From the NCBI GenBank assembly GCA_964442455.1, contig CAYTZB010000001.1:85910-149909 (forward strand): a stretch of DNA of 64,000 nt, written 5' to 3'. The DNA is from an uncultured Gammaproteobacteria bacterium. GTDB lineage: Bacteria > Patescibacteriota > Microgenomatia > UBA8517 > JACQJR01. Position numbers and translations under genes: made by a program. Numbering within the stretch: position 1 is the first letter of the stretch; the number at the start of each line of letters is the position of its first letter. Shown in pieces: positions 6,673 through 58,144 of the stretch. Under the pieces are notes generated by a model, which saw only the letters and a program-made list of their open reading frames with translations, ran no database searches and was not told the DNA's origin.

Positions 6673-6701
6673 TTGACAAGTGCGTGAAAACCCTTCAAAA
6701 T
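6673..6701 (+). promoter_or_regulatory. putative dcw/mraZ promoter: TTGACA, 17-nt spacer, CAAAAT
   Basis: Perfect -35 TTGACA at 6673-6678. The 17-nt spacer is followed by the -10-like CAAAAT at 6696-6701. Upstream context is CCCCTCTTGACA. Confidence 0.4.
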
Positions 6702-6723
6702 GGAGAAAAGTGGGGAAAAGTGG
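6697..6723 (+). promoter_or_regulatory. three direct MraZ-box-like repeats (AAAATGG, AAAGTGG, AAAGTGG) with 10-bp phasing
   Basis: Repeats start at 6697, 6707 and 6717 and overlap the -10 and TSS. They resemble the AAAGTG[GT] MraZ box of Firmicutes/Mollicutes and the phased TGGGN repeats of E. coli Pmra. Confidence 0.45.
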
Positions 6724-6762
6724 AGGACGTCAAACGTCCTAAAGGAAATCTGCCCGTATGAA

Positions 6763-7209
6763 GTGCTCATTGGATATTACCTTACCAAACTGGATGAGAA
6801 AGGACGGCTGGCAGTTCCCAAGCGGTTCAGGGGAGAGCTTGGGGAAAAGCTTGTCGCTGCCCGCTGGTATGAGGGCTGTATCCTTTTGGTGGATAGGAAA
6901 GTATGGCAAAGTTTGGTCGCTCGTCTTACCGGGGGTGAACTTGCCACCCTCTCTGCTCGGGATACTGACAGGTTTTTGCTTGCTGGCTCTTTTGAAATTG
7001 ACTTGGACAAACAAGGCAGGTTTGTAGTGCCTGAGTCATTACGAGGGTATGCACAACTCGCCCAAGAGGTTGTATGTGCAGCATTAGGAGATAGGGTAGA
7101 ACTATGGAGCAAGAGTGCATGGGAAGAACGGGAGAAAGTGTTGTTGAAAGAATCAGGTGAGAAGATAGAAAAGTTGTATAGGGAGAGAAAGGGAAATGCG
7201 CGAACATGA
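6763..7209 (+). CDS. mraZ: transcriptional regulator MraZ
   Basis: Two DxxGR(L/F)xVP repeats (LDEKGRLAVP, LDKQGRFVVP). GTG 6763 gives the canonical M-L-I-G-Y N-terminus. The in-frame ATG 6700 lies inside the promoter and operator. Confidence 0.8.
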   Translation: MLIGYYLTKLDEKGRLAVPKRFRGELGEKLVAARWYEGCILLVDRKVWQSLVARLTGGELATLSARDTDRFLLAGSFEIDLDKQGRFVVPESLRGYAQLAQEVVCAALGDRVELWSKSAWEEREKVLLKESGEKIEKLYRERKGNART

Positions 7210-8101
7210 ACCGGTTTTACTTAATGAAGTTCTAGAGTTTTTGAACGTTAAAAATGGTGGTCGCTACATTGATGCGACAGTCGGTGCTGGAGGACATGCA
7301 GGAGAGATTTGTCGTAGAGGTGGTAAAGTTTTGGGAATGGATTGGGACAAGGAGTCATTGGCTATAGCGAAACGACATCTTAAGGACGTCTGCCCTGATG
7401 TCGTTTTAGTACATGCAAATTTCGGCAAGATTGCCGATGTTGCCAAAGTTCATGGGTTTGTCCCGGTAGACGGAGTGCTCTTTGATCTCGGTATTTCGAG
7501 TATGCAATTGAAAGACGAGCGGCGTGGCTTTTCTTTTCAAACTGATGCACCGCTTGACATGCGGATGAATAAAAAAGAGCAAGGTGTAACAGCCGCTGAT
7601 CTGCTAAACGGTTTGCGAGAGGACCAGTTGTATGAATTATTTATTCAAACGACTCAAAAAAACGTTGCTCGGGCAGTTGCTCGTGCTGTTGTTCGCTCCC
7701 GTAGAAATAAGAGAGTTGAGCGGACGAGCGAATTAGTTAATTTAGTGAGTCAAGTTTATTCCGCCAGGAACAAGCTTGCTTACAGAGGGAGAGCAAGAAA
7801 GATTAGCCCGGCAACGACAATTTTTCTGGCACTCCGGATGGCAGTTAATTCGGAGCTTGAAAATTTAGAAAAAGGACTTGAGGGAGCTCTCAATGTACTG
7901 GGTTTTGGGGGAAAACTTGTTGTTATCAGTTTTCATTCCGGAGAGGATAGAATTGTTAAAAATTTCTTAAGAGAAAAACAAAAAAGTGGCATGTTACACA
8001 TTTTGACCAAAAAGCCGCTAACGCCGCAAGACGCGGAAATACAAAAGAATCCAAGAGCCCGGAGCGCAAAACTGCGCACAGGAGAAAAATTAAGAATATG
8101 A
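7196..8101 (+). CDS. rsmH: 16S rRNA (cytosine1402-N4)-methyltransferase RsmH (MraW)
   Basis: Motifs HEPVLLNEVLEFL, IDATVGAGGHA, FDLGISSMQLD and SFHSGEDRIVK. Confidence 0.95.
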   Translation: MREHEPVLLNEVLEFLNVKNGGRYIDATVGAGGHAGEICRRGGKVLGMDWDKESLAIAKRHLKDVCPDVVLVHANFGKIADVAKVHGFVPVDGVLFDLGISSMQLKDERRGFSFQTDAPLDMRMNKKEQGVTAADLLNGLREDQLYELFIQTTQKNVARAVARAVVRSRRNKRVERTSELVNLVSQVYSARNKLAYRGRARKISPATTIFLALRMAVNSELENLEKGLEGALNVLGFGGKLVVISFHSGEDRIVKNFLREKQKSGMLHILTKKPLTPQDAEIQKNPRARSAKLRTGEKLRI

Positions 8102-8394
8102 TGAAATTGCCTACCATTACTCAATATTCAGCCTTGCTTGTTGTTGTTCTTTTAGTCGTACAAATTCTGGTCAGCGTGATCTTTTCAAGTGCAGGTGTGA
8201 CATTAGGCGAGCTTGAAACAAAGGTCTCACAGTTGTCATTTGAAAATCAATTACTGGAAGAGAGGGTGGCGGCATCTGGGTCACTCCAAGAGATTGCGAA
8301 GCGAGCAACTGAGCTTGGATTTATATCTTCAGCCACCGCGTATCTGCCCCCAGAGACACCTCACGCACAGATACTTACCACGCAGAGCCGTTAA
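8098..8394 (+). CDS. ftsL: cell division protein FtsL-like (small bitopic membrane protein)
   Basis: Sits between rsmH and ftsI. Single TM (ALLVVVLLVVQILVSVIF) followed by a coiled-coil. Confidence 0.6.
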   Translation: MMKLPTITQYSALLVVVLLVVQILVSVIFSSAGVTLGELETKVSQLSFENQLLEERVAASGSLQEIAKRATELGFISSATAYLPPETPHAQILTTQSR

Positions 8395-10126: not shown

Positions 10127-10268
10127 ATATCTTGACAACAGCCGAAAATATGTAATACCCTTTACGTAGGACATAAAACCTGTTTCAAAACTTGCGCATC
10201 AGCTTTACTGGTTTGCTTAAGGTAGGTTTTGTGAAGCCGTTTTGAAACGACTTCATAGTAATTAATTT

Positions 10269-10646
10269 ATGTCAGCAGAACTGCCCCGCTGGACGTTTGA
10301 TGCTGCTGGGAGACCCCAAGACTTAATTCATAATGGAAAAATTGTGCTTCAAGACGGAAGACCAGTATTTGCGGAGAATAATTGTATTACTTTCGAGGAA
10401 GGCAAAAGTGGTGCACTTTTAGTAATCCGTGAACCAGAGAGTTCCGTATCATCATCTCTTTACATATTACGGCCAGAAGTAGGTAACTTTAGACTTATTC
10501 AAAATAGTATTGAGAGGAGGTTAAGTCTCGTGCCTTTGAGCGGGCAAATCGATGGAAACGGAAGGTCATTCACAATTCCCGACATGAGTTCAGTTTTGAG
10601 ACAAATAAGACTTCGTTTAGAAAAGCTTCCAAGAACCTCGCAATAA
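10269..10646 (+). CDS. hypothetical protein (accessory insertion in dcw cluster)
   Basis: 125-aa ORF. A TTGACA plus TGTAATAC-like promoter lies upstream. No recognised domain. Confidence 0.45.
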   Translation: MSAELPRWTFDAAGRPQDLIHNGKIVLQDGRPVFAENNCITFEEGKSGALLVIREPESSVSSSLYILRPEVGNFRLIQNSIERRLSLVPLSGQIDGNGRSFTIPDMSSVLRQIRLRLEKLPRTSQ

Positions 10647-10650
10647 CTTC

Positions 10651-10675
10651 TTTTGAACTTAATTGTGGTATAATT
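10651..10675 (+). promoter_or_regulatory. duplicated copy of the murE extended -10 promoter (TTTTGAACTTAATTGTGGTATAATT)
   Basis: About 88% identical to 12441-12466 (one gap, two mismatches), including TGTGGTATAAT. It is followed only by a 3-codon ORF. Confidence 0.4.
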
Positions 10676-10842
10676 CTTTGTTAAATCGTATGAATTGTTA
10701 AACAATTCTTAGCCTTGAATTTTTGAAACTTAGATGTGTAGGCACCTTCGAGGTGTACGCAGGTATGGTACTATTACCACACTACAGAATATGGCAGTTG
10801 TTTAGTAATCTAATGATTTAAATCACTGGATCAGTATGTTGG

Positions 10843-10870
10843 TTGACAAACGGATTACATTTGCTATAGT
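10843..10870 (+). promoter_or_regulatory. promoter TTGACA, 16-nt spacer, TATAGT for the 10883 gene
   Basis: Paralogous to 11844-11871. The shared tail is TATAGTTAAGCTnAATTTAT before the ATG. Confidence 0.45.
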
Positions 10871-10882
10871 TAAGCTAAATTT

Positions 10883-11701
10883 ATGGCAGCTTCAATTGCT
10901 GAACGATTGGGGGTGACTTTAGAGCGTTTAGGTAAGGGGTTACAAGAAAGAGCAAGACCAAAAGAATCAACTTCTCCGGAACTTCTTCGTGATAAAGCAT
11001 TAGAATTATGGAGATTGACTGCTCCTGGACGCAAAGCTGATCCAAGCACCTCTGCTATTTCTTATTTCGTTTTCTCCTCTTCAGAAGGAGTTACTGCAGA
11101 CACTCAGGAAAAACAACTATTTGATGATTTATTAAAACCATATTGGCATGTCCATGATTATGATGGTTTTATGGTTATACTTTCAGTAAATCCGGATAAA
11201 CTTCCTAGTGTTTCATTTAAACTCTCCATTTTAGCTCCAGCTCCACCACAATTACCCTTTGAAGGTAAGTCTGCTGTTTTAGCATTTAGAGAATTTCCTC
11301 CAGATAGGAGTCGAAGGAGAGACTATCCTTATAATTTGCTTATTCAAGGAGAAAATAGAAATTTTTATTCTGATATATTGGATCAAGAAGTTACCGGTTT
11401 TGATCCTACTCAAGGATTACAATGGCAACAATTAGAAAAATACTCTGTTGATTATCAACCAAGAGGTGATATTGAATGGAGAAAAAAATTCACAAGCGAT
11501 GTTCTTGATCTCTTAATCGATATTATTAAAAAAATAGGATACGATGAAGTTGCTCAGGCTAGGATGGATCAATTTTGGAGGAGAAGTAGCATGATTCGGG
11601 GACGGTGGCTTGGTGAAGTTGAAAGTGAAAATCGGGAAGTAGATTATCGCCGACATTTTAATAATACTTCCTTGTCCCGCCGTAACAGGTTTAGTGTTTA
11701 A
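10883..11701 (+). CDS. hypothetical protein (accessory insertion in dcw cluster)
   Basis: 272-aa ORF with a consensus promoter and no recognised domain. Confidence 0.5.
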   Translation: MAASIAERLGVTLERLGKGLQERARPKESTSPELLRDKALELWRLTAPGRKADPSTSAISYFVFSSSEGVTADTQEKQLFDDLLKPYWHVHDYDGFMVILSVNPDKLPSVSFKLSILAPAPPQLPFEGKSAVLAFREFPPDRSRRRDYPYNLLIQGENRNFYSDILDQEVTGFDPTQGLQWQQLEKYSVDYQPRGDIEWRKKFTSDVLDLLIDIIKKIGYDEVAQARMDQFWRRSSMIRGRWLGEVESENREVDYRRHFNNTSLSRRNRFSV

Positions 11702-11843
11702 CTGTAATCGGTATTTTGAGGCTAATTAATGGTGCAGACACACCTTCGAGGTGTACGCAGGTATGGTACTATTACCACACTCGGTGTATGGTAGTTGTAC
11801 AACGACTCTAATGATATGTATTATTAGAGCGATACCTTTTTTA

Positions 11844-11871
11844 TTGACAATTGAATCCTCTCTGATATAGT
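11844..11871 (+). promoter_or_regulatory. promoter TTGACA, 16-nt spacer, TATAGT for the 11894 gene
   Basis: Duplicate of the 10843-10870 architecture. Confidence 0.45.
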
Positions 11872-11893
11872 TAAGCTGAATTTATAAGCTATT

Positions 11894-12445
11894 ATGACTG
11901 AATTAAGTCGCACCGACGGATTAGGAGAACCAGGTGAGCATGAAGCGTTTGAAGAATTAGATCCTCACAGAATTGCCCAACTTTTTGGAACAACAGCGAA
12001 ATTAACTTATTATGAAATTCGTTATGAGCTTGAAACAAATAAAGAAATTAAGAGAATTCCTGTGTGGGTGATTGATATTATAGAAAGGTCAAAATTAAGA
12101 CTTGTACAGCTATTCGTTGCACCAGAGATAAGACAAGTAGGTGTGGTTTCTAGTTTGCTTTTCAGCTCAAATTTACCACCCAACGTTGAGCCTGATCGGT
12201 ACGGTGAGACAAACCATACAGCCCGACTTGAGGGTGTGCAACAAGTTGAAGTTCGAAGATATCCTTTTTCCTCCCCATATACCAACGTAAGTTTTATTAT
12301 AGAAGACGAAAAAACAAAGTCAGTGCTACAAGTTGACTCTCGAGCAACATTCAGATTTGACTTTATGCAGAAAGAAGAATTAGGTAAGTATGCAATAGGT
12401 TTAGAAGAGATAAGGAACTTTTTCCGACGCGTTTCTCATTTTTGA
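11894..12445 (+). CDS. hypothetical protein (accessory insertion in dcw cluster)
   Basis: 183-aa ORF with no recognised domain. Its stop lies inside the murE promoter repeat. Confidence 0.5.
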   Translation: MTELSRTDGLGEPGEHEAFEELDPHRIAQLFGTTAKLTYYEIRYELETNKEIKRIPVWVIDIIERSKLRLVQLFVAPEIRQVGVVSSLLFSSNLPPNVEPDRYGETNHTARLEGVQQVEVRRYPFSSPYTNVSFIIEDEKTKSVLQVDSRATFRFDFMQKEELGKYAIGLEEIRNFFRRVSHF

Positions 12446-12455
12446 ACCTAAATCG

Positions 12456-12464
12456 TGGTATAAT
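12456..12464 (+). promoter_or_regulatory. extended -10 promoter TGgTATAAT for murE (leaderless configuration)
   Basis: TGGTATAAT at 12456-12464. The ATG at 12472 starts 7 nt after the -10. Confidence 0.45.
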
Positions 12465-12471
12465 TTACATA

Positions 12472-13818
12472 ATGGATGTGGTGAAGACGGTATTTGGGAA
12501 GAGTCGTTGGTATGGGCCGATCAGAAACTTCCAACACTTCGTAGAAGCAGTCTTCGCAGTTATTAAAAATGGATATCCTGCGCGAGATTTAACGGTTATT
12601 GGTGTGACAGGAACAGACGGAAAGACAACAACGTCGCACATTATCTCATCAATTCTTCAAGAAGCAGGAATTAAAACTGCGCTTATCTCAAGCGTCGGTG
12701 CATTTATTGGTGATGAGGAGGTCGATACAGGCTTCCATGTAACGACTCCTGATCCAAAATTACTTCAACCACTTCTCGTAAAGATTAAAGAGAAAGGAAT
12801 AACCCATGTTGTTATAGAAGCAACATCTCATGGACTTGACCAACACAGACTTCTTGGATGTAATTTTAAAGTGGGAGTTTTGACAAATATTACTCATGAA
12901 CATTTAGATTACCATCAGACGTTTGAAAGATATAGAGACGCTAAAGTAAAGTTGTTTCGCGGTGTTAAAACTGCTGTTTTAAATAGAGACGATGACTCAT
13001 TTTCCTACATAAAATCAAAAACAAATCCTGGTACTCGTGTCATTGCTTACAGCGTAAAACAAAATGCTACGTTATGGGCAGATAAAGTTTCATTTAATTG
13101 GAAGGGTATGGAATTTCGTGTGAGAGAAGGAAGATCAAGTATTACGCTTACAACAAAACTTATTGGTGAATATAATGTTTCAAATATACTCGCTGCTGTT
13201 GGAGTCGCGCGCGGAATTGGAATTTCATGGGAAGCGATTAAGGAAGGGGTCGAAAGGTTTGGAGGAATTCCAGGAAGGATGGAAAGAGTTGATGAAGGAC
13301 AAACGTTTGCCACCTTTATTGATTTTGCACATACACCAGCGGCTCTTGAGAGCGTATTGACACTTCTTAAGAAATTAAAAACTCGAGATAGTAAACTCAT
13401 CGTTGTATTTGGAGCAGCAGGAGAACGGGATGTTAGCAAGAGGGCTTTGATGGGTGAAATTGCCGCCCGTTTGGCTGATTTTACCGTGTTGACTGCCGAG
13501 GATCCGCGTACCGAGAATCTTAACAGGATTATTGATGATATTACACGGGGGATAAGGCAAAATGCTAAAGTGTGGGATGGTGTTGTGGATTGGAGAAAAG
13601 AAGGAAGCTGGTGTATTCGAGTTCCTGAGCGGGGTGAAGCGATTGCATTTGCCGCTCAAAAGTTGGCGAAAGGTGGGGATATTTTGGTGATTTGCGGAAA
13701 AGGCCATGAGAAATCAATGGCATTTGATCACACCGAATACCCATGGTCAGACCAGGAAGCAGCTAGGGTAGCGCTCAAAGGGAAAATTAAAAGAGTAAAA
13801 AGAGGACAATTAACCTAA
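12472..13818 (+). CDS. murE: UDP-N-acetylmuramoyl-L-alanyl-D-glutamate--2,6-diaminopimelate (or L-lysine) ligase MurE
   Basis: Mur ligase P-loop GVTGTDGKTTT, central and C-terminal Mur ligase domains, DAP/Lys-binding region. Start ATG 12472 (MDVVK) is preferred over ATG 12442, which overlaps the promoter. Confidence 0.9.
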   Translation: MDVVKTVFGKSRWYGPIRNFQHFVEAVFAVIKNGYPARDLTVIGVTGTDGKTTTSHIISSILQEAGIKTALISSVGAFIGDEEVDTGFHVTTPDPKLLQPLLVKIKEKGITHVVIEATSHGLDQHRLLGCNFKVGVLTNITHEHLDYHQTFERYRDAKVKLFRGVKTAVLNRDDDSFSYIKSKTNPGTRVIAYSVKQNATLWADKVSFNWKGMEFRVREGRSSITLTTKLIGEYNVSNILAAVGVARGIGISWEAIKEGVERFGGIPGRMERVDEGQTFATFIDFAHTPAALESVLTLLKKLKTRDSKLIVVFGAAGERDVSKRALMGEIAARLADFTVLTAEDPRTENLNRIIDDITRGIRQNAKVWDGVVDWRKEGSWCIRVPERGEAIAFAAQKLAKGGDILVICGKGHEKSMAFDHTEYPWSDQEAARVALKGKIKRVKRGQLT

Positions 13819-13929
13819 TTGACCTAATTATTCTAATTTCTAAAGAATGTCTAATGACAATTTTAAGAATTTCATATTTGGGATTTCTTTAGGTTAATTA
13901 GAAATTAGTAATTAGAAATTTAAGTTTTT
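13795..13929. repeat. AT-rich intergenic repeat element B (CTAATT / TTAGAAATTAG motifs), copy 1
   Basis: Shares ATTAACCTAATTnACCTAATT, ATTTGGGATTT and AATTAGAAAT modules with 36437-36592. It contains the internal inverted repeat CTAATTTCTAA/TTAGAAATTAG. Confidence 0.5.
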
Positions 13930-15354
13930 ATGGATATAAAAACTTTGAAACATATCCATTTCACCGGCATTAAGGGTGTCGGTATGACAGCGCTTGTCTT
14001 ATGTGCACAGGATTTGGGGATAAAGGTAACCGGTTCTGATGTTGCCGAGGTATTTGTGACGGATGAGACACTAGAAAAGCGTGGGATAAGATGGAATGTG
14101 GGATTTGGTGAAAAGAATTTAGACCCGAGGCCTGATTTAGTTATTACCACCGGTGCTCATGGTGGATTACGCAATCCTGAGGTAGTGGCAGCACAAAAAA
14201 TGGGTATCCGAGTGTTAACACACGCCCAGGCGCTGTATGAATTTACGAAGGGGAAAGAAGTTATCGCGGTATGCGGAGTAGGTGGTAAATCAACGACCTG
14301 CGCAATGATTGCAACGATTTTTGATGAAGCAGGACTTCATCCGTCGTTTGCTATAGGCGTGGGGGACATTCCATCACTTGGTGCTCCGGGAAGATACGAT
14401 AAGAAGGGGAACGTGTTTATTGTTGAGGCGGACGAATATGCAATTTCTCCGGGGGTTGATAACCGGCCGCGGTTTAGTCTACTTTCTCCGCGAGTCATTG
14501 TTGTTACTAATATTGAGCATGACCATCCTGACATTTATAAAACTTTAGAGGATACGAAAAGAGCGTTTCGAGAATTTTTTGAAAAATTACCCAGCGATGG
14601 TTTGCTTGTTGCAAATGGAAACAGTGAGAATGTCCGCACGATAACTAAAAATCTCAAAGTAAGAGTTATAATGTACGATATTGAAAATTTAGAACTTTCT
14701 ATTCCTGGTAAGTTTAATCAGGCAAATGCGACTGCAGCTTCTGCAGTTGCAAAATTTTATAACAGCATTCAAGAATACTCCGCAATTTATTGCGGAGATG
14801 AATTGAACGCTGATATGTCATCCTCCTTTAGAGGGAAACCCAGCTCGTTAGAGCGGGGAGGATGTCATAAAATCCCAGAAGAAATAATTAAAAGAGGACT
14901 CCAAAATTTTAAAGGTGTTAGACGTCGGTTTGAAAAAATGGGTGAAATAAATGGAGTATTGTTTTATGATGATTACGCTCATACCCCAAATGAAATAAGG
15001 GCTACACTAGGAGCCGCTCGTGAATGGTTTAATAACCAACGCATAGTTGCAGTTTTTCAACCTCATACCTATTCTCGAACAAAAGCGTTACTTAGCGAAT
15101 TCGCGAAGAGTTTTAGTGATTCGGACATAGTTGGAGTTATGGATATTTATGCTTCCGCTCGGGAGAATGATACTTTAGGTATGTCGGGAGAGCTACTTGC
15201 AAAAGAAATTTCTCGATACCACAAAAATGTTGCCTATACGGGTAATCATGAACGAACTATTGAGTGGATTAAAAAAAATAGTAAAAGCGGTGATATAGTT
15301 TTGACTTTAGGGGCAGGCGATATTTTTTTATTGCACAGGATAATTAATTCATAA
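13930..15354 (+). CDS. murC: UDP-N-acetylmuramate--L-alanine ligase MurC (carries an in-frame 38-codon repeat-element insertion)
   Basis: N-terminus HIHFTGIKGVGMTAL, P-loop GVGGKSTT, and C-terminal DDYAHTPNEI. An extra 38 aa sit between the conserved AVAKF and IPEEIIKRGLQNFKGVRRRFE. Confidence 0.9.
   Translation: MDIKTLKHIHFTGIKGVGMTALVLCAQDLGIKVTGSDVAEVFVTDETLEKRGIRWNVGFGEKNLDPRPDLVITTGAHGGLRNPEVVAAQKMGIRVLTHAQALYEFTKGKEVIAVCGVGGKSTTCAMIATIFDEAGLHPSFAIGVGDIPSLGAPGRYDKKGNVFIVEADEYAISPGVDNRPRFSLLSPRVIVVTNIEHDHPDIYKTLEDTKRAFREFFEKLPSDGLLVANGNSENVRTITKNLKVRVIMYDIENLELSIPGKFNQANATAASAVAKFYNSIQEYSAIYCGDELNADMSSSFRGKPSSLERGGCHKIPEEIIKRGLQNFKGVRRRFEKMGEINGVLFYDDYAHTPNEIRATLGAAREWFNNQRIVAVFQPHTYSRTKALLSEFAKSFSDSDIVGVMDIYASARENDTLGMSGELLAKEISRYHKNVAYTGNHERTIEWIKKNSKSGDIVLTLGAGDIFLLHRIINS
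14759..14872. mobile_element. 114-bp palindromic MITE/RPE-like element A, copy 1 (inside murC, in frame)
   Basis: Same architecture as 58032-58144 and the truncated 25471-25537. It has a conserved 5' arm (TATAACAGCATTCAAGAA), three hairpins with compensatory changes, and a near-inverted 3' arm (GGAGGATGTCATA). Confidence 0.7.
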
Positions 15355-25346: not shown

Positions 25347-25470
25347 ATTCGAAGCACGAAGCTCGAAACAATATCTAAATTCAAATACCCAATGTTCAAA
25401 AAGGTTTAGAATTTTGAATTTTACTTATTTGAAATTTGTTTAGGATTTCGAATTTAGAATTTCGGATTTA

Positions 25471-25537
25471 TTATAACAGCATTCAAGAAAACTCCCGACT
25501 TTTAGTCGGGTGATGAATTGAACGCTGATATGTCATA
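25471..25537. mobile_element. element A, copy 2 (truncated: 5' arm and hairpin 1 only), ending 4 nt before the ftsA start
   Basis: Matches copies 1 and 3 up to GATATGTCAT. The internal module between the two ATGTCAT direct repeats is missing. Confidence 0.6.
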
Positions 25538-25541
25538 AGTT

Positions 25542-26810
25542 ATGGCTAAAGGAAAAGTTATTGCCGGAATAGATATTGGTTCTTCCAAAGTTGCGACCGT
25601 CATAGGCAGTGCAAATCCAGAGGAAGAAGTACTACAAGTTTTGGGAGTGGCGTCTGTTCCTGCTCCGCCTGATGGAATTAAGAAGGGGCAAATTGTTGAT
25701 ATTGAGAAAGCCTCTGGGGCGGTTGTAGCTTCGGTTGAGAAAGCAGAACGGATGGCGGGGTTTGCACTCGATAACGTCGTCGTTGTTATTAATGGTGGAC
25801 ATATTCAGGGTCAAAACTCTCATGGGGTTGTTGCAATATCCTCCCCGGAGGGAGAGATAGAAGGAAGTGATGTTGAGCGGGTCATTGATGCCGCGCGTGC
25901 GATATCTCTTCCAGCTGGTCGCGAAGTTATTCATGTGCTCCCTTGTGAGTTTATTGTAGATGGGGAGAAAGGGATAAAGGATCCGGTGGGAATGAGTGGG
26001 GTGCGGCTTGAGGTAGAAGCGCATATTGTAACCGCGTCAACAACTGCCATTCGCAATTTAACCAAGTGTGTAAGTGAGGTGGGAGCGAGAATTTCCGGTG
26101 TGGTGTTCTCGGGGTTTGCCGCCGCCGCATCGGTGCTTTCTGATACCGAACGGGAACTAGGAGTCGTGTTAATTGACCTTGGAGCGGGGACGACCTCAAT
26201 TGCCGTTTTCACCGATGGCGCACTGGTTCACTCGCGAGTGCTTCCTATTGGTTCAAAAAATATTACCAATGATTTAGCTATAGGACTGCGCACCTCGCTT
26301 GAGAGTGCTGAGAAGATTAAAATTTCTCTCTCCGCAGCAAGTAAAAAAGACAAAGAGGAAGACGAGATAGACGTGTCGGGGTTGGGTGTTGATGGAGGGG
26401 AACGGACTGTGTCAAAAAGGACCCTTTCAGAGGGGATTATACGGCCTAGACTCAACGAAATTTGGAGTATGGTAGGGATGGAGCTCAAGGCCACGGGTCT
26501 TGGAGGGAGAACCCCGGCAGGAGTGGTGATTACCGGAGGGGGAGCGTTAACGGTAGGAGCGGTTGAGTCAGCACGGCGAATCTTAGCCCTTCCTGTTCGG
26601 GTGGGAATTCCCACCGGTATTTCGGGATTGGTTGACGATGTCTCAACGCCCGCATTTGCCGCAACGGTTGGGGCGGTTGCGTGGGCAGCACAAAACGTTG
26701 CCCCTCCTTCGGGTTTTCGTATTGGTCAGTTCACCCGTCCCTTCGAAAGCCTCCCTGTAAAAGGAGTGGTAGGCAAGGTGGTTGAGGTTATAAAAGGATT
26801 GCTGCCATAA
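25542..26810 (+). CDS. ftsA: cell division protein FtsA
   Basis: Actin-like ATPase. IAGIDIGSSKVATVIG, GGGHIQG and DLGAGTTSIAVF. Confidence 0.95.
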   Translation: MAKGKVIAGIDIGSSKVATVIGSANPEEEVLQVLGVASVPAPPDGIKKGQIVDIEKASGAVVASVEKAERMAGFALDNVVVVINGGHIQGQNSHGVVAISSPEGEIEGSDVERVIDAARAISLPAGREVIHVLPCEFIVDGEKGIKDPVGMSGVRLEVEAHIVTASTTAIRNLTKCVSEVGARISGVVFSGFAAAASVLSDTERELGVVLIDLGAGTTSIAVFTDGALVHSRVLPIGSKNITNDLAIGLRTSLESAEKIKISLSAASKKDKEEDEIDVSGLGVDGGERTVSKRTLSEGIIRPRLNEIWSMVGMELKATGLGGRTPAGVVITGGGALTVGAVESARRILALPVRVGIPTGISGLVDDVSTPAFAATVGAVAWAAQNVAPPSGFRIGQFTRPFESLPVKGVVGKVVEVIKGLLP

Positions 26811-26999: not shown

Positions 27000-27008
27000 G
27001 GTATAATT
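27000..27008 (+). promoter_or_regulatory. extended -10 promoter TGgTATAAT for the 590-aa gene
   Basis: Perfect TGnTATAAT lies 13 nt before ATG 27022. Confidence 0.4.
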
Positions 27009-27021
27009 AAGGCAAAATTTT

Positions 27022-28794
27022 ATGATCGCTGAACGTCAAGAAAATAAAGCCGTTCAATTGAACGGTCGAGATTGGTTATCCCCTGAGGTTGATGATATTG
27101 CACGTCAAGCAATTAGAGATATGGTGCCGCAGAGATCTGAGGATGGTAATGGTTTGCATTCACAGGAAGAGTTAAATAATGCATTATCAATTTCTTCCTT
27201 TCGTAGAAATGGTCTCCTTGGAATGTTACATATAAAATTTGATGGCGATATTGAGCAAGCTTTAAGATTTGCATATCCTGAGATTTTTAGAAAACCACTT
27301 TTACATCTTGATGAACCTCATTATGGTGATCCTTTTCAAGAAACATGGAGGGAAAGAGAACGCGAAATTGAAGGCAGAATAATATCGACGATGGAAAGGA
27401 GTAGGTTAGGTCATATCTATTTCTACGATAATGAAGTTATTGATAGTGATCAAAAAGCAAGGAAACTTATGAAATTGGGTAGACGGGTCGAGCGCCATGT
27501 AAACCGAAGAAATACCCGTGAACGTCATCACGAAAAAATAGACGTTGACGAATGGCAGGGAAGAGAAAATGAAGATTTTCAAAGAGCAATAGTTCGTTTT
27601 CTAAAACTTGGTGATAGCGTCGCAGGTTTTCTCGGCAGCAACGATACTGAAATTCCACGTTCTATTTTAAATCGAATTGGACAACAAGGAGTATTTTATA
27701 TGATAGGTCGCAGAAATTATCCTTATAACGAACTCGCCGGTTCATTTCCTAACGCAAATAATAGAGGAATCGAGGACGAACTTTTAGCAAGAGCTCTTGA
27801 GTTGGGAGAGTCTTTAATATTGAACAACTACGATCAAGAACAAATAAAAAAAACACTTAACGGTCATAAAATCTATCCAGTTGTCTACAGACCTCCCAAT
27901 CTTCCTGAAGAAATTTCTCGACATTCTTTAAATGCTTTCATTGTGAGCGATCGAGTAAGGGAAATTTTGGAAGAATTTAGGGAAGATTTCCTATGGGCAA
28001 TAGATTCAGCTTTAAAACAAGGTGGATATTTAATTTTTCGAGAAAACGCCAGGCAACAGACAAATATTGAGTACTATGGCCAAGATCTTTGGTCTAGCAG
28101 ATATCAAAGAGTAGGGACGGGAACGAAATCGGCCCAATTAATGATTTTTCGTAAAGTTGCTACAGGTAATTCTATGGTTAGTATTTCTCAAACAGTTTCA
28201 GAAAGTTCTCAATCGACTGAAAATGAAGAGGAATTTGGAGTGTGTACTATTGAACATAAGTGGGAATTTGAAAACGGAGAAGGGGCTGATAAGCAAATTT
28301 ACGCAGCACTTAAGCATGTTATTGAACAAAAACATAGATTAAACGGGGAAGTTACAGAAGCTCAACAGATAGACGAGTTACTAAAAGGAACGTTGAGCGT
28401 AAGTTGGTTTAGGAAAACTGGGCTTTTGCCAATCTTATTTAGTCGGTTTGGCGGAAGTGTTGAAAAAGCAGCGGAGTTTGTTATAGAACATAACCAAGCA
28501 GGAAGAACTCCTCCAACTATTATCCAAAGATCTCCTGAAGGGGCAAAATCCTCTTATAATCTCTACGATCTTGCCAAAGAATTGGGAGTTAGGATAGATG
28601 TTATTAGAAAAACTCTAAATAATGCTGGTATAAAAGGAGTACAGTCACAAAGAAATAAAGGGAATTTTCACCCCCAAACAAGTAGAATGCAATTTTCTTA
28701 TCAGGAGTTTTTAACATTAAGAGATGTATTACGGAGGGATTTAAATGTAGAAAAGGCTACCAAGGAAAGGAGCGATAATGCAGAGAGAATTTGA
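27022..28794 (+). CDS. hypothetical protein (590 aa) with two copies of a WF[RQ]K-GLL ... FA[YW]PE-F repeat module
   Basis: Long ORF. Its repeats SSFRRNGLLGMLHIKFDGDIEQALRFAYPEIF and SWFRKTGLLPILFSRFGGSVEKAAEFV are shared with the N-terminus of the following giant protein. The C-terminus is HTH-like. Confidence 0.65.
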   Translation: MIAERQENKAVQLNGRDWLSPEVDDIARQAIRDMVPQRSEDGNGLHSQEELNNALSISSFRRNGLLGMLHIKFDGDIEQALRFAYPEIFRKPLLHLDEPHYGDPFQETWREREREIEGRIISTMERSRLGHIYFYDNEVIDSDQKARKLMKLGRRVERHVNRRNTRERHHEKIDVDEWQGRENEDFQRAIVRFLKLGDSVAGFLGSNDTEIPRSILNRIGQQGVFYMIGRRNYPYNELAGSFPNANNRGIEDELLARALELGESLILNNYDQEQIKKTLNGHKIYPVVYRPPNLPEEISRHSLNAFIVSDRVREILEEFREDFLWAIDSALKQGGYLIFRENARQQTNIEYYGQDLWSSRYQRVGTGTKSAQLMIFRKVATGNSMVSISQTVSESSQSTENEEEFGVCTIEHKWEFENGEGADKQIYAALKHVIEQKHRLNGEVTEAQQIDELLKGTLSVSWFRKTGLLPILFSRFGGSVEKAAEFVIEHNQAGRTPPTIIQRSPEGAKSSYNLYDLAKELGVRIDVIRKTLNNAGIKGVQSQRNKGNFHPQTSRMQFSYQEFLTLRDVLRRDLNVEKATKERSDNAERI

Positions 28795-31700
28795 ATCTCA
28801 AAGAACGATAGAAATAACACCGGGCAAATCTCCAACTAATGAAGTTATAGAAAGGGTAGGTAGAGAAATAACTCACTGTGATTTGCTCCATATGTGGAAT
28901 TTTGAGGTGGATGGGAGGAACCAGCAAGAGATAGATGAAGAACTTCAGGAAGCAATAAGGCATGTTGTAACGTATACACATACCATCAATGGTGCAGAGT
29001 ATGGAGGCTACCTACCTGATGAGACACTTGAAGAAAAATTGAATTTAGCGTGGTTTCAGAAAGTGGGACTGTTAAAACCAGTGGCGTTGCAGTTTAAGGG
29101 TGAAATTGCAGATGTTGTTCGGTTTGCGTGGCCTGAAGGATTTCACCAGGAAGAGCAAGAGAGAGTCCAGGCGTTTCGTTTGAGACCAGATACAATTGAA
29201 TTTTGGCAGGAATTAAAGAAAGATCTAGAAGGAATACAAACGCCCAAAAATATGGCACTTTCAACTTTTATGATGTATTACGATCCTCGAACAAAAAGGC
29301 AATCTTATCTTGAGGGAGGTAAATATATATACCTTTACGGCCTCTTTTTTCAGGATACATTAGCTGAAGAGTCGATTCATAACCCGGTTGATTATTTAAG
29401 CTCCCGATTCAATCCACCTCGTGATAATCAAGAATTTATTGATCTAGTCAAGGAAACACGTGAGCTTGCGGAGATAAAGCTTCGTAAACCCTATGGAAGT
29501 GTTATGGACATACAAGAAAGGCTTGCAGATCCTAGTTTTTTGGAAGAGTTTGTAATAGATTTGAACGAATATACTGAAGATTTCACTTTTGCTAACTTTA
29601 TGCAAGGCTGGTTGAATTATACAACTCCCAATGGTGACATCATACGGTGGAGTGCTAGAGGAAAGTACAGAGAGCTTCTCAATGATCTTTTAGCACGAAG
29701 GTGGATTGCACAACTGGGCGAAAATGCCGGTTCTGAATCTACACCAAAAAAACCCGCTGAAATATTTTATGAAGCTGCTCCGCAGAACCTCAAACTTTTA
29801 CTTTTGGCGAAATTTCCGAAGGATTTTTCCCATCTTACACTCGAAAGTTTGGAACAGAGTCAGGTAGTGTCAGATGAAGTTCGTGCAATACTTGAAGAGA
29901 CCAGCTTACTGGGAGTTGATAGTCAAGATCGTATTTTAGAGACGCTTGGGAATTATATCTTAGCTAAACATAAAAATAATGAAAGTCTTAATTATCTTGA
30001 TGGTCAACGAATTAAGACGATTTTACTTCAAGTTTCTCAACAAATTCTTCCCGCAGTTATTAGAAGAGCTGCTTCTTCCAAAACGGAGAGCGTTTTAACC
30101 GATAGTCGCATAGTTCCTACAGTTTTGAGCGAAGCAAACTCAGAGAATCAAGAAGTTGCTGACTCTGCCCAAGAGTTGTTGGAATCTCTTAGGGAGGCGT
30201 ACTACTTTCCCCTGCTTAAAAGTTTACTTTACAAACCAACAGCGCTTTTTTGGACTTCATATTTAACTGAGCACCCCGAAGAGGTAACAGTTCCTCCTGC
30301 CATGTTAATTAATTTCCTTGAAAAGCATTTAAAAGGAAGAGTAGAAGAAATTGCTCTTCAAGGCGATCAAAAAGAGGTTCTTGGTTATTTAAGTCAAGAG
30401 GTACTTCCTAATGTCTATCGCCACTTTGCTGAAGTTGCTACCTTTGCCCAGACAATTGCTCACTTTAGAACAAAGGATATTGAAGGGAAACCTCAACATT
30501 TACTTTTTCACCAAGTAGAAGGAATTAAGAAATTGATCGAAGATAAAGGCGGAATTGTATCAGATGAACCTGGTACTGGCAAAACACTTATACTTGCGCT
30601 TTCTGCACTTAATCTGATGGACAGAAGCGGAATTGTTGGACGAGGTACACCTGGGCGCGCTTTAGTAGTTGGGACAAAATCAGTAATAGATAATTGGGAA
30701 AGTGAACTGGATGCACATATACGAACAGACTATATAGATGTTGTAAATGTCAACTTCACCAATCAGAAAGATAGACAAGTGAGTAGAGATGAGTTACAAG
30801 CCCGGTTACGTGAGCTAGAAAGATTACTTCGAAACCCTAGACATCAGAGACAAATGGTATTGGTCAATTACGATTTGTTCAGACACCCTACATTTAAAAA
30901 GATTTTGGGATCTTATCCGTTTGATTCTGTGATAGTTGATGAGGCACATAACGTTAAATCTCGGTTTCTTGAATCAATTAATACCTATGAGAAAAGCGAT
31001 GATTTACGGAGTAGCACGAGTGTAGCTAAAAGAACAAGGGGTCTTTATAGCTACATCAGAACTAGTCCTGACCTTTCTGTATTTTTTGCCACGAGTACAC
31101 CTTATGTTAAAGAGCTTGTCGAACCTCTTATTATGGCGCATTTAGTTAACGAACAACTTGTACCTAGAGAAAGGGTACAACAACTTATGGAAGATACTGT
31201 TGGAACTCACCAAGTATTAAGACAAGTGATGATTCGCAGAAAGAAAGAGGAGATAGCTGACTTACCACCTAAAGAAACGGTAGTAGTTCCGATTGATCTT
31301 ACTTTGCTTTCCGAGGAGGAGAAGCAAGAGTTTAAAGCAATAGCACAAGAGATTATGGAGAACGAAAATTTTGCTGCACGGTTTTATTCAATGCTTTCGC
31401 TTGAAGGTTTGGCCAAATATCCCTGGTTGACAGAAAAGGTTAAAGAGCTTATTTCAGATGGTCGCAAGGTAATTATCTTCACCCCCTTTGTGGTTGGAGA
31501 AAATCGATATACTGCGCCGATTAGTACCGCACGAATAGCAGCAAAATTAATGGGTGCAGGAATTCCAATCAACTCAGTTGCTGTTTTGGACGGAAGTTTA
31601 GATGAAGGAGAACGAATTAGTGTGCAAGGACGTTTTCGTAACCAGCGAGATCCGAAAGTTTTAGTTGGTAATTACATTACCGCAGGAGAGTCAATAACAC

Positions 31701-34700
31701 TCAACTCACCCACCAATAGAGCTACGGAAGTAATTATCTTTGTGGGGCCAAATACAATTACTCGCTATATTCAAGGGGTTGACCGAAGCCACAGAATTGG
31801 GCAAACAGAAAAAGTTACCATTCACATACCATATGTTACTGGAGATTTGCTTGGACGAGGTGAGACCTACGACGAAGCAGTAATTAAACGACTTATGGAT
31901 GAACTGGTAGTTTTTGGAGCTGTCGTCGACGGGCGATTCTTTATGGAGCCAAAAGATATCTATCAATCAATTATTCAAACAGATAGAGCAAAACCGAGAG
32001 GTAGTGTTGAATTTACACGAGAGCATCGACAACGATCAAGAGAGAGGCGACGTGGTCCTTATACACCTCGGTTGCCCGGAGAACCAACTCCAAGAGTAAT
32101 GATAAGTGAAGATGAGGTTATCGATTTTGGATGGATGCAAAATATTCGTGAGGTTGTTACTCGTGAGAGCGAGTCTGAACAGGATATAGTGAGAATGTAT
32201 CTAGAGCAGATAGGACAATACCCACTATTTAATCCGGATAATCCAAATCACGAAAGATTGGCGTTCGATTATTTTAAAAGTGACAGAACCCTTGATGAAT
32301 TAAAGATAGATTCAGAATTTCTTTCAATGATTAATCCGCGAGATAGAGAAGATTTTGGACGTGTTCTGACTGATAGCCAAAGTATTCAAGATTTAATTAT
32401 TAACTGTAATCTCCGCTTGGTAGTTTCAGTAGCTCGTCAACGTCAAGGTCGCGGCTTACCCCTTTTGGATTTAATACAAGAAGGAACATTTGGCTTAATG
32501 CATGCGGTTGAACTCTTCGAACCCGAGCGAGGAAATAAATTTTCAACATACGCAACGTGGTGGATACGCCAAAGTATAAACAGAGCGATCATGAATTCTT
32601 CGCAGACAATCCGATTGCCAGTTCATATGTATGAAAGAATTGGTTTGGCTCGGAGATTTGCAAGAGAATTTGAAGCTACAAATGGTCGCACCCCAAAAGT
32701 GAGTGAGCTGCGCGAGTTAGTTTTAACTCAAACAAAGTTTTCCGAAAGTGAAGTTGACTCTGTAATCGAAACCATTGCTTCAGGAGTTATGCAAATGGGC
32801 ACTTTGGACTTTGAGATTGGGGAAGATGGAGAAGATACATTATATGATGTCGTTGCCGACAAGAGAATGGATGTTGAAGCAACTGTTTTGGAAGAAACAG
32901 AGGATGATGAGCTGAATACTGAGGTAAAGAGGGCTCTGAAAGAGAATTTGGATGAAAGAGAAAGAAGAATAATAGAGTTAAGATTCGGTTTGGGTGAAAC
33001 AAGAGAGAGAACTCTAGAAGAAGTCGGACAAGAATTTGGATTGACACGAGAACGTGTTAGACAGATTCAGGAAAGAAGTTTAGGCAAACTTAGTAGAGAC
33101 AAACAATTACGCGCTCGGTGGGAAGGCGATGCTCCGAGTTTTGTGTATCATACGAGTGCAGAGCAAGCAGCCATCAGGTTAGGATTATTCAATAAGAAGC
33201 AAAGTTATGTCGAGAAAGTTGTCGCAGAGTTACCTCCCCATCTTCAGAGTGTGCTTAATCAACGTATTCTCAAAGCAGCATCTTTGATAAATGGAGATGC
33301 ACAAAATGGGACTTCCGAAGTGGATCAAAGTTATCAATTTACACTTGCACGACTTGCAGTATGGGAGAAGTTAGGGACACTTTATCCAGACGATTTAACT
33401 GACTCACGGCAACGTCGTGAAATATATGGAAAAGATTTTGGGCCATATTTTGACCTATCGCTTATGAAACGGTTGTATGAGCGAAGGGATGGTAGAGTTA
33501 GACTGTTAGATAATCGAGTGTTATCGCACTTTTTTGGATTTGGCGATGGTCAGAAACCCCTCTTAAGTGTAGAGAAAGTTACTCAAGAGCTAGGAATTCC
33601 ACAGGATACAGTTACCGCGGGTCTTCATAAGGGGTTGCAGGTACTTGAAGCTCCACCAGAGAAGAAAACCAGAGCAGAAGAGCTCAGCAGAGAACACAGC
33701 ATTGTTGCACAGGCGTTTCGCAATCAAGAGATTTGGGATCAAATTCCTGATAGAGAAAAAAGCATATTAACACTCTATTTCATACGTGGTGGCGATCAAC
33801 AAGTATTAAAAGAGAATTTTTCGAGAATTTTCGGGATTTCTCTGCCTGAAGTAGATGCACGAATAAACGCTGCAGTAGAGTTAACTGAACGACTTTTAAC
33901 AGAAATTCAGGCTAAACCAGAACGTCAACGAAGGGTAACAAGAGGAGAACTTAGAGATATGGTTGAAGGATTATTGAAAGAGTATCCTTGGTTGAGCAAT
34001 AGCGAAGTAACAGAGCATCTTTCAACAAAACTAAAACAAGATTTAAGCAAAGCTCGTGTTGACCAAGCGAGGAAGAGCTTGGTTGCCCTTGAGAGAGTAG
34101 AGTCACGGCGTGGAAAATTAGATATACTTGACTCAAGAGTCGAAGCATTACTACTCCAAGGATTAAAACCCCAGCAAATTGCTGAGAGTTTGGTTCAATC
34201 AGAAAAAAGAGTTATTGCTTCTATAAGAAGATTGATTAGCACAGGAAATCTTGATACCCAACTTATTCAGTGGAGAAACGATGGCCTTTCAAAGGAAGAA
34301 ATTGCTGAAAGAATAGGAAGTTCAGCTGTTACCATAGGGAGAAGGCTCCGGGTACATGTTGAATCTGGTGCTCTACCTTTCCATCCTCGTGATCCTCGGA
34401 CAGTTGATGATTCTGGAGTTACCGAGCACGTCAGAAACCTAGACGGTATGGTTGAGTCATTGATTCTTCAAGATCCAAAAATAAAAACTAAAGAAATTAT
34501 TGCTGCATTGGAACCTACAGTAGGAAAATACATGGCGGAATTAACAATCCGGAGAGCAAAGAAGCGGCTGGTAGCTGCAGGGAGAATACCTTCTCATTTA
34601 TTTAATCTTACCCATGAGGAAGCAGTAGCTTTAGATCAACAAGTAGAAGAATTGGTAAAAAACGGAAATCTCTCTTATAAAGAGATAGCTGCTGCATTGA

Positions 34701-34951: not shown

Positions 34952-34995
34952 GAAAGTTGCTTTTACGCTTCTTGTAAGCTATACTACACACCGAT

Positions 34996-36436: not shown

Positions 36437-36592
36437 AGGCCACAAGTGAAATTAACCTAATTAACCTAATTGCTCTAATTGATCTAAATTTTGAAGATTT
36501 GTAGTTTAAAAATTGGGATTTATTTAGAAATTAGAATAATTAGAAATAAGCAGAGCTTGTTTCTCGCAAGCTCGAAATTAGAAATTTTTAAA
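36437..36592. repeat. AT-rich intergenic repeat element B, copy 2 (upstream of ftsZ)
   Basis: Modules ATTAACCTAATTAACCTAATT, ATTGGGATTT and TTAGAAATTAGAATAATTAGAAAT are shared with 13795-13929. Confidence 0.5.
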
Positions 36593-40514: not shown

Positions 40515-40550
40515 GTTTGGAGAACGCTTCGAAATACCAGCGTTTCTAAG
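40512..40550 (+). repeat. 39-bp direct repeat, right copy (displaced remnant of the ftsZ 3' end encoding ..EFGERFEIPAFLRQGR*)
   Basis: Identical core. It is followed by AGGCAAGGAAGATGA, whereas ftsZ itself has AGACAGGGCCGCTAG. Both encode RQGR-stop. Confidence 0.9.
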
Positions 40551-40571
40551 GCAAGGAAGATGAGGGTAACA

Positions 40572-58007: not shown

Positions 58008-58031
58008 AGCAGTGAGTTTATTATAACAGCA

Positions 58032-58144
58032 TTCAAGAAAACTCCCGACTTTCAGTCGGGAGATGAATTGAACGCTGATATGTCATCCTCCTTTAGAGGA
58101 AACCCCGCTTTTCAAAGCGGGGAGGATGTCATAGTATAATTCTT
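58032..58144. mobile_element. element A, copy 3 (full length, intergenic)
   Basis: About 85% identical to copy 1. Hairpins 1 and 3 differ from copy 1 by compensatory changes (CGCAATTTATTGCG vs CGACTTTCAGTCG; GCTCGTTAGAGC vs CCCGCTTTTCAAAGCGGG). Confidence 0.7.

Follow-up and report, generated by a model that had tools for sequence, protein, structure and literature searches.

A 64,000-nt stretch of DNA of Patescibacteria source (candidate phyla radiation, CPR), hereafter the window, carries a division and cell wall (dcw) cluster of the Patescibacteria type, with every gene on the plus strand. In this cluster, ftsI, recognized by the Pfam domains Transpeptidase and PBP_dimer, ends at 10126, and murE, with Mur_ligase_M and Mur_ligase_C, starts with an ATG at 12472; the region between them is occupied by three unannotatable open reading frames (ORFs) on the plus strand (10269–12445). 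An earlier note on this DNA, made by reading the sequence, had reported that ORFs of 125, 272, and 183 aa separate ftsI from murE, and their coordinates were confirmed exactly; they are called here gene 1 (10269–10646), gene 2 (10883–11701), and gene 3 (11894–12445). None of the three had a match in Pfam, PHROGs, NCBIfam, PADLOC, or the sequences of the PDB, and a phage or defense origin of these genes was rejected upon finding zero PHROG or PADLOC matches. The analysis of this gap, including its relatives, its promoters, and its repeats, suggested that it is probably a strain-variable accessory islet, assembled by recombination where a promoter boundary of the dcw cluster is permissive. The copy numbers and the searches for recombinases reported below refer to the window.

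The relatives that contain gene 1 were recovered from Hainich groundwater assemblies, one NCBI metagenome-assembled genome (MAG), and one Logan contig (L002–L007). In every one of these contigs, a gene 1 homologue 86% identical at the amino acid level was found directly after ftsI, with dN/dS values of 0.29–0.33. The gene encodes a small protein without a family match and is confined to a narrow clade, with 4 clusters among 5.8 billion, and a scan of JGI metagenomes anchored on gene 1 gave the same Hainich contigs only. Because it is conserved after ftsI in all the relatives found, gene 1 is a resident gene of this clade and not an insertion, contrary to what had been proposed. Its upstream region (10134–10268, plus strand) contains a conserved TTGACA promoter common to the relatives and a strain-specific insertion in the leader. 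This insertion of about 77 nt (about 10177–10253) was absent from all relatives when compared by blastn with L002–L007, has inverted 10-mer ends, GTTTCAAAAC and GTTTTGAAAC, with CATA(A/G) at both edges and a fold z of −2.05, and from these features it looks like a miniature inverted-repeat element.

Beyond gene 1, the content of the gap differed in each of the four related strains, even though the flanks are 82–90% identical. The window contains gene 1, gene 2, gene 3, and murE, in that order; contig L007 contains gene 1, a HAD hydrolase gene and a 216-aa gene, both on the reverse strand, a 287-aa homologue of gene 2, and murE; in L004 and L006, gene 1 is followed by the HAD gene and a 188-aa lipoprotein-like gene; and in L008, a homologue of gene 3 lies directly before murE. 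One MAG is broken exactly in the gap, with L002 ending after gene 1 and L016 starting at murE. Conservation of all three genes at this position across the lineage had been named as the observation that would speak against insertion: the synteny comparison found it for gene 1, whereas the part holding genes 2 and 3 is not conserved across the lineage and differs in each of the four strains. The broken MAG (GCA_964363945.1, contigs L002 and L016), which holds the closest relatives of the dcw cluster, is titled 'uncultured Gammaproteobacteria bacterium', and its gene 1 protein, P0007, is labeled by NCBI as from a Patescibacteria group bacterium; the former title is probably a mislabel.

Gene 2 (plus strand) is one member of a protein family that is small, evolves fast, and contains no known domain. 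In a full phmmer search through 1.84 billion representatives, 23 proteins had E < 1e-3, and a word-indexed search retrieved gene 2 alone. When the family alignment was supplied, the AlphaFold model of the protein was confident (pLDDT 82.9, pTM 0.79) and showed helices around a seven-strand beta core, and no Foldseek match at E ≤ 1e-3 was found for it in the PDB or BFVD. Two members of the family are fused to a C-terminal Trans_reg_C domain of the OmpR type. This is a newly defined family, small and uncharacterized, with a confident model lacking a detectable fold relative and with an occasional OmpR-type DNA-binding fusion. As the relatives carry such fusions, and palindromes flank the gene 2 promoter, we would guess, with low confidence, that gene 2 encodes a cytoplasmic regulatory or adaptor protein. 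The genomic contexts of the relatives are unrelated to each other and include glycosyltransferase clusters, sites next to Fic/HTH genes or to genes for Crp and response regulators, and a site downstream of tRNA and L33 (ribosomal protein) genes. The family members in L007, L009, L012, L013, and L014 are preceded by a promoter of the TTGACA(A) type and by a short leader; the member in L015 closely follows another ORF, and no such promoter is evident there. Since family members elsewhere carry this arrangement, the TTGACA…TATAGT promoter-leader cassette found before gene 2 is the family's own, and the earlier idea that the cassette of genes 2 and 3 is native dcw regulatory sequence could not be sustained. 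In L013, a 46-nt segment (100–145 and 1151–1196; 76% identical) precedes both the gene 2 homologue and the next, unrelated gene, and an inverted copy (1269–1284) overlaps the start codon of that next gene; the core of the segment, GCCGAGAATTTTGA, resembles the window motifs (b) and (c) described below and was found in the window and L013 only.

The comparison of gene 2 with the 287-aa homologue of L007 showed 25% protein identity (pairwise E = 6e-14) and a dN of 0.70, while the dN of the flanking murE and gene 1 between the window and L007 was below 0.1. Despite the divergence of the proteins, the promoters and 5′ ends of these two genes are 78–97% identical. Gene 3 (plus strand) is an orphan accessory gene with a single homologue, that of L008, to which it is 75% identical in amino acids over residues 47–174 (dN/dS 0.21), and which is also directly upstream of murE. 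The L008 protein does not have the first 46 residues of the gene 3 product; it has a different N-terminus, and the DNA upstream of it is unrelated. The AlphaFold model of gene 3 was not used because of a pLDDT of 40. No gene of the cluster has a lower G+C content at third codon positions than gene 2 (0.21) and gene 3 (0.27). The possibility that genes 2 and 3 are paralogues was rejected, with a BLASTP E above 1.

The working copy of the murE promoter, here called (d), is located at 12440–12474 on the plus strand, has TTGAAC as −35 and TGGTATAAT as −10, and is conserved in L007 and L008. The murE ATG is placed 7 nt past the −10 (TATAAT), and therefore a leaderless murE mRNA is predicted. The stop codons of gene 3 and of the 287-aa gene of L007 both fall inside the −35 of this promoter. 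Shortly after gene 1, a second copy, (a), was found at 10651–10675 on the plus strand (TTTTGAACTTAATTGTGGTATAATT), with the same TTGAAC −35 and TGGTATAAT as an extended −10, in alignment with the murE promoters of L007 and L008. The duplication had been noticed before, and it was corroborated here: copies (a) and (d) agree at 20 of 25 positions ungapped, or at 23 of 26 by eye with one gap, and no other 25-mer of the window reaches 20 of 25, nor did any in 20 shuffles. The location of the murE copy had been given as 12441–12466; a promoter is indeed there, but the position was off by one base (12440–12465). The element TGGTATAAT is by itself a common extended −10 in the window, with six exact copies, but only (a) and (d) share the 17 nt upstream, and this argues for a duplication beyond promoter consensus.

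It had also been stated that copy (a) heads only a three-codon ORF. This mini-ORF, ATGAATTGTTAA, is indeed present at 10690–10701, but all except its first two bases lie inside a perfect 8-1-8 palindrome, GAATTGTTAAACAATTC (10692–10708), with a fold z of −5.3, a candidate operator or 5′ hairpin judging from its sequence. Further alignment revealed two remnants of murE-promoter-like −35 plus spacer sequence on the plus strand, (b) at 10716–10742 (TTTTGAAACTTAGATGTG) and (c) at 11708–11740 (TTTTGAGGCTAATTAATGGTG), the latter directly after gene 2. In both remnants, the place where the −10 would be expected is occupied by a 41-nt block. Thus, four murE-promoter-like copies, (a) to (d), are located at the unit boundaries.

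The remnants are the left ends of two paralogous modules of about 170 nt that precede genes 2 and 3 (about 10716–10884 and about 11708–11885). The promoters of both modules, TTGACA-N16-TATAGT at 10843–10870 and 11844–11871, have 11 of 12 consensus positions and are TG-extended, and the leader shared by both genes is TAAGCT(A/G)AATTTAT; the sequence TATAGTTAAGCT(A/G)AATTTAT occurs in the window solely at genes 2 and 3, with 0.03 occurrences expected by chance. The near identity of promoter and leader reported before was, therefore, verified. For gene 2, the promoter and its very short leader extend over 10843–10882 on the plus strand, with TAAGCTAAATTT before the ATG, and are conserved in L007; those of gene 3 extend over 11844–11893 on the plus strand, and this gene, as far as the alignments indicate, has captured a copy of the gene 2-type promoter. 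The homology of the modules ends at the start codon of the gene 2 family: the position of the gene 2 ATG reads ATA before gene 3, which starts 9 nt further downstream. The gene 3 promoter and leader match the L007 allele at 38 of 42 positions and gene 2 of the window at only 32 of 42, and the three modules (gene 2, gene 3, and L007) are roughly equidistant, with 69–77% identity. A recent simple duplication, as could be read into the earlier description, does not account for this result: except for one tract of 41 nt, the copies are about as distant from each other as they are from the allele of another strain, so a single recent duplication is insufficient.

That tract is a perfect direct repeat on the plus strand, block A at 10743–10783 and block B at 11741–11781, with 0 such repeats expected by chance. 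On its two sides, identity falls to 15 of 28 and 69 of 100 positions, and 41 matches in a row at this background of about 70% have a P near 1e-6; the history of the block, therefore, differs from that of the rest of the module, and no fewer than two events that differ in age are required. The block contains two small hairpins, CACCT-TCG-AGGTG and TGGTA-CTAT-TACCA, and its hairpin sequence is CACCTTCGAGGTG (TACGCAGG…). Ahead of the first hairpin, block A reads GTAG-G-CACCT-TCG-AGGTG and block B GCAG-ACA-CACCT-TCG-AGGTG, with a one-base difference in the head, and the stem of 5–6 bp is not G+C-rich. There are only two copies of the block in the window, and its 21-mer is absent from the GTDB representative genomes and the JGI metagenomes, results that led us to reject it as an abundant repeat.

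Between the blocks and the promoters, both modules have an AT-rich palindrome. The one just upstream of the gene 2 −35 (10803–10836; consensus TCTAATGATTTAAATCATTAGA) is degenerate and weak (z = −0.9), whereas copy B and L007 have well-formed versions (z = −5.1 and −4.8, respectively). In copy B, a hairpin of 11–12 bp (11803–11831) is followed by a T-run (11837–11842), and this plus-strand feature, with a fold z of −5.07, could act as an operator, or else as a weak terminator or insulator, to judge by its sequence; the hairpin misses the G+C criterion of the terminator scan. Rfam had no match for the upstream modules, whether the gathering thresholds were applied or E values as high as 5 were allowed, and neither tRNA fragments nor tandem repeats were detected in them. 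A structured RNA leader was discarded, as the fold z was inconsistent between copy A (−0.06) and copy B (−2.6).

Collectively, these data are best accommodated by an islet whose content is exchanged between strains and stacked by recombination, and we regard this reading as reasonably probable. The gap would represent the boundary between two independently promoted transcription units of the dcw cluster, where strong, gene-specific promoters would drive genes 2 and 3 with next to no leader; a near-consensus promoter is predicted for every unit, 12–22 nt before the start codon. As murE keeps a private promoter and the units are independently promoted, the content of the gap could be swapped without polar effects on the downstream genes. 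We infer four steps. The whole content would be exchanged between strains by homologous recombination through the conserved flanks, gene 1 on the left and the murE promoter and murE on the right, and this would account for the strain-to-strain differences. Unequal or illegitimate recombination at murE-promoter-like sequences would then place two gene 2-type units in tandem, leaving the remnants (b) and (c). Replacement of the second gene 2 body by a gene 3-type gene just past the start codon would explain both the captured promoter and the novel N-terminus of gene 3. Later, the 41-nt hairpin block would be homogenized in both modules, either by gene conversion or by re-insertion of a small element. 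The earlier proposal of successive duplications and insertions that copy native regulatory DNA is thus upheld for the extra genes, the four murE-promoter-like copies, and the two modules, but not for the TTGACA…TATAGT cassette, which is that of the gene 2 family, or for gene 1, which was not inserted.

Several observations weigh against this reconstruction. Only four related strains were recovered, which makes any ancestral state and any succession of events tentative; the anchored scans of GTDB representatives and JGI metagenomes added none, as the one anchored on MurE gave a single broken contig and the one anchored on gene 1 gave contigs already recovered. With about 20 nt each, remnants (b) and (c) are short as well as AT-rich, and a loose version of the murE-promoter-like motif is not enriched window-wide; the TTTTGAAC-type motif was rejected as a genome-wide signal, although 4 of its 28 loose matches fall in the 2.3-kb islet. 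All the promoters are predictions from consensus, the guess of a regulatory role for gene 2 is drawn from two domain fusions and the palindromes, and the perfect identity of the 41 nt could instead reflect function or mobility.

The first of these options, function, would make the block and the neighboring palindromes a cis-regulatory element that co-regulates genes 2 and 3, as an array of operators bound by a dimeric regulator, or as a structured leader RNA, with identity kept because one factor has to read both copies. This is suggested by the perfect identity of the block within modules that are about 70% identical, by its two small hairpins or palindromes, and by a 22-bp palindrome just upstream of the −35 that copy B and L007 both retain, with changes in each of its two arms; moreover, a perfect palindrome follows promoter (a), some gene 2 relatives have the OmpR-type DNA-binding domain, and L013 has a similar repeated upstream segment before two successive genes. 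However, L007 keeps the promoter and the palindrome but not the hairpin half of the block, and hence the block is not under lineage-wide constraint. In addition, 41 identical bases exceed what a binding site usually needs, Rfam gave no match even at the relaxed E value, the whole upstream region of copy A folds unremarkably, and the block is placed 60–100 nt upstream of the −35. We therefore consider co-regulation unlikely. An artefactual origin of the tandem arrangement, i.e., strain variants mis-joined at the 41-nt sequence during the assembly of a MAG, was also weighed, since short-read contigs do break at the repeat: both L017 and L018 stop 126 nt past gene 1, L001 covers 10754–11770, and the related MAG is broken in the same gap. 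Independent Logan contigs from other samples nevertheless cross the junctions, with L020 running from gene 1 through block A into gene 2, and in L001, at 100% identity, block A is linked to gene 2 and gene 2 to block B. The DNA to the right of block B differs from that to the right of block A, so both contexts of the repeat exist, and the stop codon of gene 3 is embedded in the murE promoter, as is that of the L007 gene. An artefact is thus hardly credible.

The mobility option is based on the closest homologue of gene 2, P0008, which is 43% identical and is assigned by its source to Candidatus Daviesbacteria. This gene is followed by a Y1_Tnp gene (L009–L011), which is bracketed on both sides by ATTCCACCTCGAAGGTGGAAT, whose 13-nt core is the reverse complement of the window hairpin; the flanking 19-nt palindrome-like repeat is TTCCACCTCGAAGGTGGAA. 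In L009 (6869–7646), the Y1_Tnp gene, of 223 aa, lies between identical 21-nt hairpins in direct orientation in a unit of about 780 bp, which looks like a compact IS200-like element, or like a REP-associated tyrosine transposase (RAYT, where REP stands for repetitive extragenic palindrome) with an unusual orientation of the repeats. The palindrome of this type was absent from viral contigs. As a blind BLAST search, the 13-nt match has an E of 0.2–0.26; it is more notable because hairpin meets hairpin next to homologous genes, and the core shared by them is suggestive, though not proof, of a link to Y1 transposases. Accordingly, cassettes composed of block, promoter, gene, and motif could have been inserted successively at the murE promoter, with block and motif as the recombination site and an enzyme acting in trans, e.g., a Y1 transposase of the IS200/IS605 or RAYT type that recognizes the CACCTTCGAGGTG hairpin. 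Every unit indeed begins with the block and ends with a murE-promoter-like motif, the core is identical, in reverse complement, to the hairpins around the Y1_Tnp gene by P0008, and the best NCBIfam match of that Y1_Tnp is REP_Tyr_transpos; furthermore, block A has a GTAG head immediately 5′ of the hairpin, as REPs have (PMC2817692), and the strain has other small mobile repeats, one of them in frame in murC.

These data have to be set against others. The match to REP_Tyr_transpos (E = 5.7e-12) scored 45.7 bits, below the curated cut-off of 80, and the core match is as weak in BLAST terms as indicated above. No Y1 transposase was found in the 64 kb by tblastn, and no integrase, transposase, or recombinase domain by Pfam in the ORFs scanned, i.e., most large ORFs of the window. 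The block has two copies in the window and its 21-mer is not found in the GTDB representatives or the JGI metagenomes, the L009 hairpin is oriented oppositely relative to the gene 2-family gene, and the modules are old, with about 70% identity, unlike fresh cassettes. Moreover, L007 DNA devoid of the hairpin is homologous to the block at its right end, so the block has no clean insertion boundary. The insertion of cassettes by such an enzyme is, for these reasons, quite improbable, and its most far-reaching version, an integron-like cassette-capture system in CPR bacteria with blocks and murE-promoter-like motifs as recombination sites and a Y1 (IS200/RAYT-like) transposase in trans, is very doubtful. 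If true, it would be an integron-like function achieved by single-strand transposase chemistry, stacking self-promoted accessory genes inside the dcw cluster; unless it is, current understanding is unchanged, and the Y1-transposase hairpins are of value as a lead to how such genes move.

With the recombination-built, strain-variable islet retained as the favored reading, the islet is fairly ordinary genome plasticity and is unusual in lying inside the dcw cluster. This cluster is described as among the most stable ones (PMC8871954). Its arrangement is usually regarded as among the most rigid in bacteria, and the ftsI-murE junction of this reduced CPR genome would be a site where insertions are tolerated and where the content changes between strains that are about 90% identical in the flanking genes. 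Such tolerance is suggested by the leaderless promoter that murE has for itself and by the fact that each newcomer brings its promoter.

As for the rest of the cluster, all on the plus strand, mraZ (6700–7209), rsmH (7196–8101), and ftsL (8098–8394) are located before ftsI, and murE is followed, in this order, by murC, murB, an alpha/beta hydrolase gene, murF, murA, mraY, murD, ftsW, murG, and a 227-aa ORF; ftsA (25542–26810) and ftsZ (36491–37720) are separated by three large ORFs (27022–36351). The ftsA-ftsZ junction is, therefore, also interrupted. The middle ORF, of 2057 aa (28778–34951), has SNF2/ResIII helicase domains and sigma-70 regions 2, 3, and 4, and the ORFs of 590 and 451 aa that flank it have no Pfam match. 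The 590-aa ORF, the first after ftsA, has a −10 and leader, TATAATTAAGGCAAAATTTTATG (27002–27024), closely similar to the TATAGTTAAGCTAAATTTATG cassette of genes 2 and 3, a likeness that may mean that accessory genes with almost no leader are often built this way in this genome; the suggestion of an equal pattern at ftsA/ftsZ was examined in passing only. A two-hairpin repeat of about 110 nt is present in frame in murC (repeat, 14752–14869; murC, 13930–15354), adding 36 aa that are absent from the 81%-identical orthologue of L007, and further copies are intergenic (25467–25536 and 58017–58133) and carry a minus-strand TGTTATAAT promoter that points outward. At the 3′ ends of ftsZ (37669–37713) and of the next gene (40512–40556), which encodes a 917-aa ResIII helicase, a direct repeat of 45 nt was observed (96% identity), and short repeats of the AATTAACCTAATT type are found just after murE (13808–13846) and just before ftsZ (36450–36497).

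When compared with known systems, gene 1 is found in a narrow clade only and genes 2 and 3 are not conserved at their position, and thus none of them behaves as a core dcw gene. The islet shares with integron arrays the presence of unrelated genes placed head to tail in one orientation, of units bounded by a repeated hairpin-capable sequence, and of a neighboring resident promoter. However, no IntI or Phage_integrase was found in the window ORFs scanned; the repeats are 5′ of the genes and are not attC-like, and the repeat search detected no long imperfect inverted repeat of the attC type. Integron cassettes are, besides, mostly promoterless, whereas here there are only two units and each has a promoter with 11 of 12 consensus positions. 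By these traits, the locus does not qualify as an integron. REPs are defined by a 5′ GT(A/G)G head directly before a palindrome interrupted by 2–4 bases (Nunvar et al. 2010, PMC2817692). Block A contains a short intergenic palindrome headed by GTAG, and the 13-nt core flanks a Y1 transposase gene in Daviesbacteria; in contrast to REPs, which amount to tens to hundreds per genome, there are two blocks in 64 kb, their stem is short (5–6 bp) and G+C-poor, and the GTAG head is present in one copy only. There is no RAYT gene in the window, and the L009 hairpins are direct, like the ends of IS200/IS605 elements, and not inverted as around RAYT genes. Given its copy number and the lack of a RAYT gene in the window, the locus does not qualify as a REP/RAYT system either. 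In IS200/IS605 elements or palindrome-associated transposable elements (PATEs), sub-terminal hairpins on the same strand bound the mobilized DNA, and TnpA (Y1) acts in cis or in trans. In the islet, gene 2 lies between two identical, directly oriented hairpin blocks, but around both blocks the paralogy continues for about 30 nt on the left side and about 100 nt on the right, tblastn detected no TnpA in the window, and empty sites were not observed. The two-hairpin repeat of murC, for its part, resembles Rickettsia palindromic elements, which are also inserted in frame.

Islets flanked by core genes are a general pattern of bacterial genome plasticity. The ftsI-murE gap differs from integration hot spots in being tiny, about 2 kb, and in having no associated tRNA, integrase, or other mobility gene, but otherwise resembles them: the core flanks are 82–90% identical in nucleotides, the content is strain-specific, third codon positions of the inserted genes are AT-richer, and orphans or members of small families come with their own promoters. 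With respect to promoter capture and tandem duplication by unequal recombination, the copies studied here are old, and another strain's allele is about as far from them as they are from one another, apart from the 41-nt tract; similar to those systems, hybrid promoter remnants are found at the junctions, and gene 3 stands on the promoter of the neighboring family, with the homology ending at the start codon.

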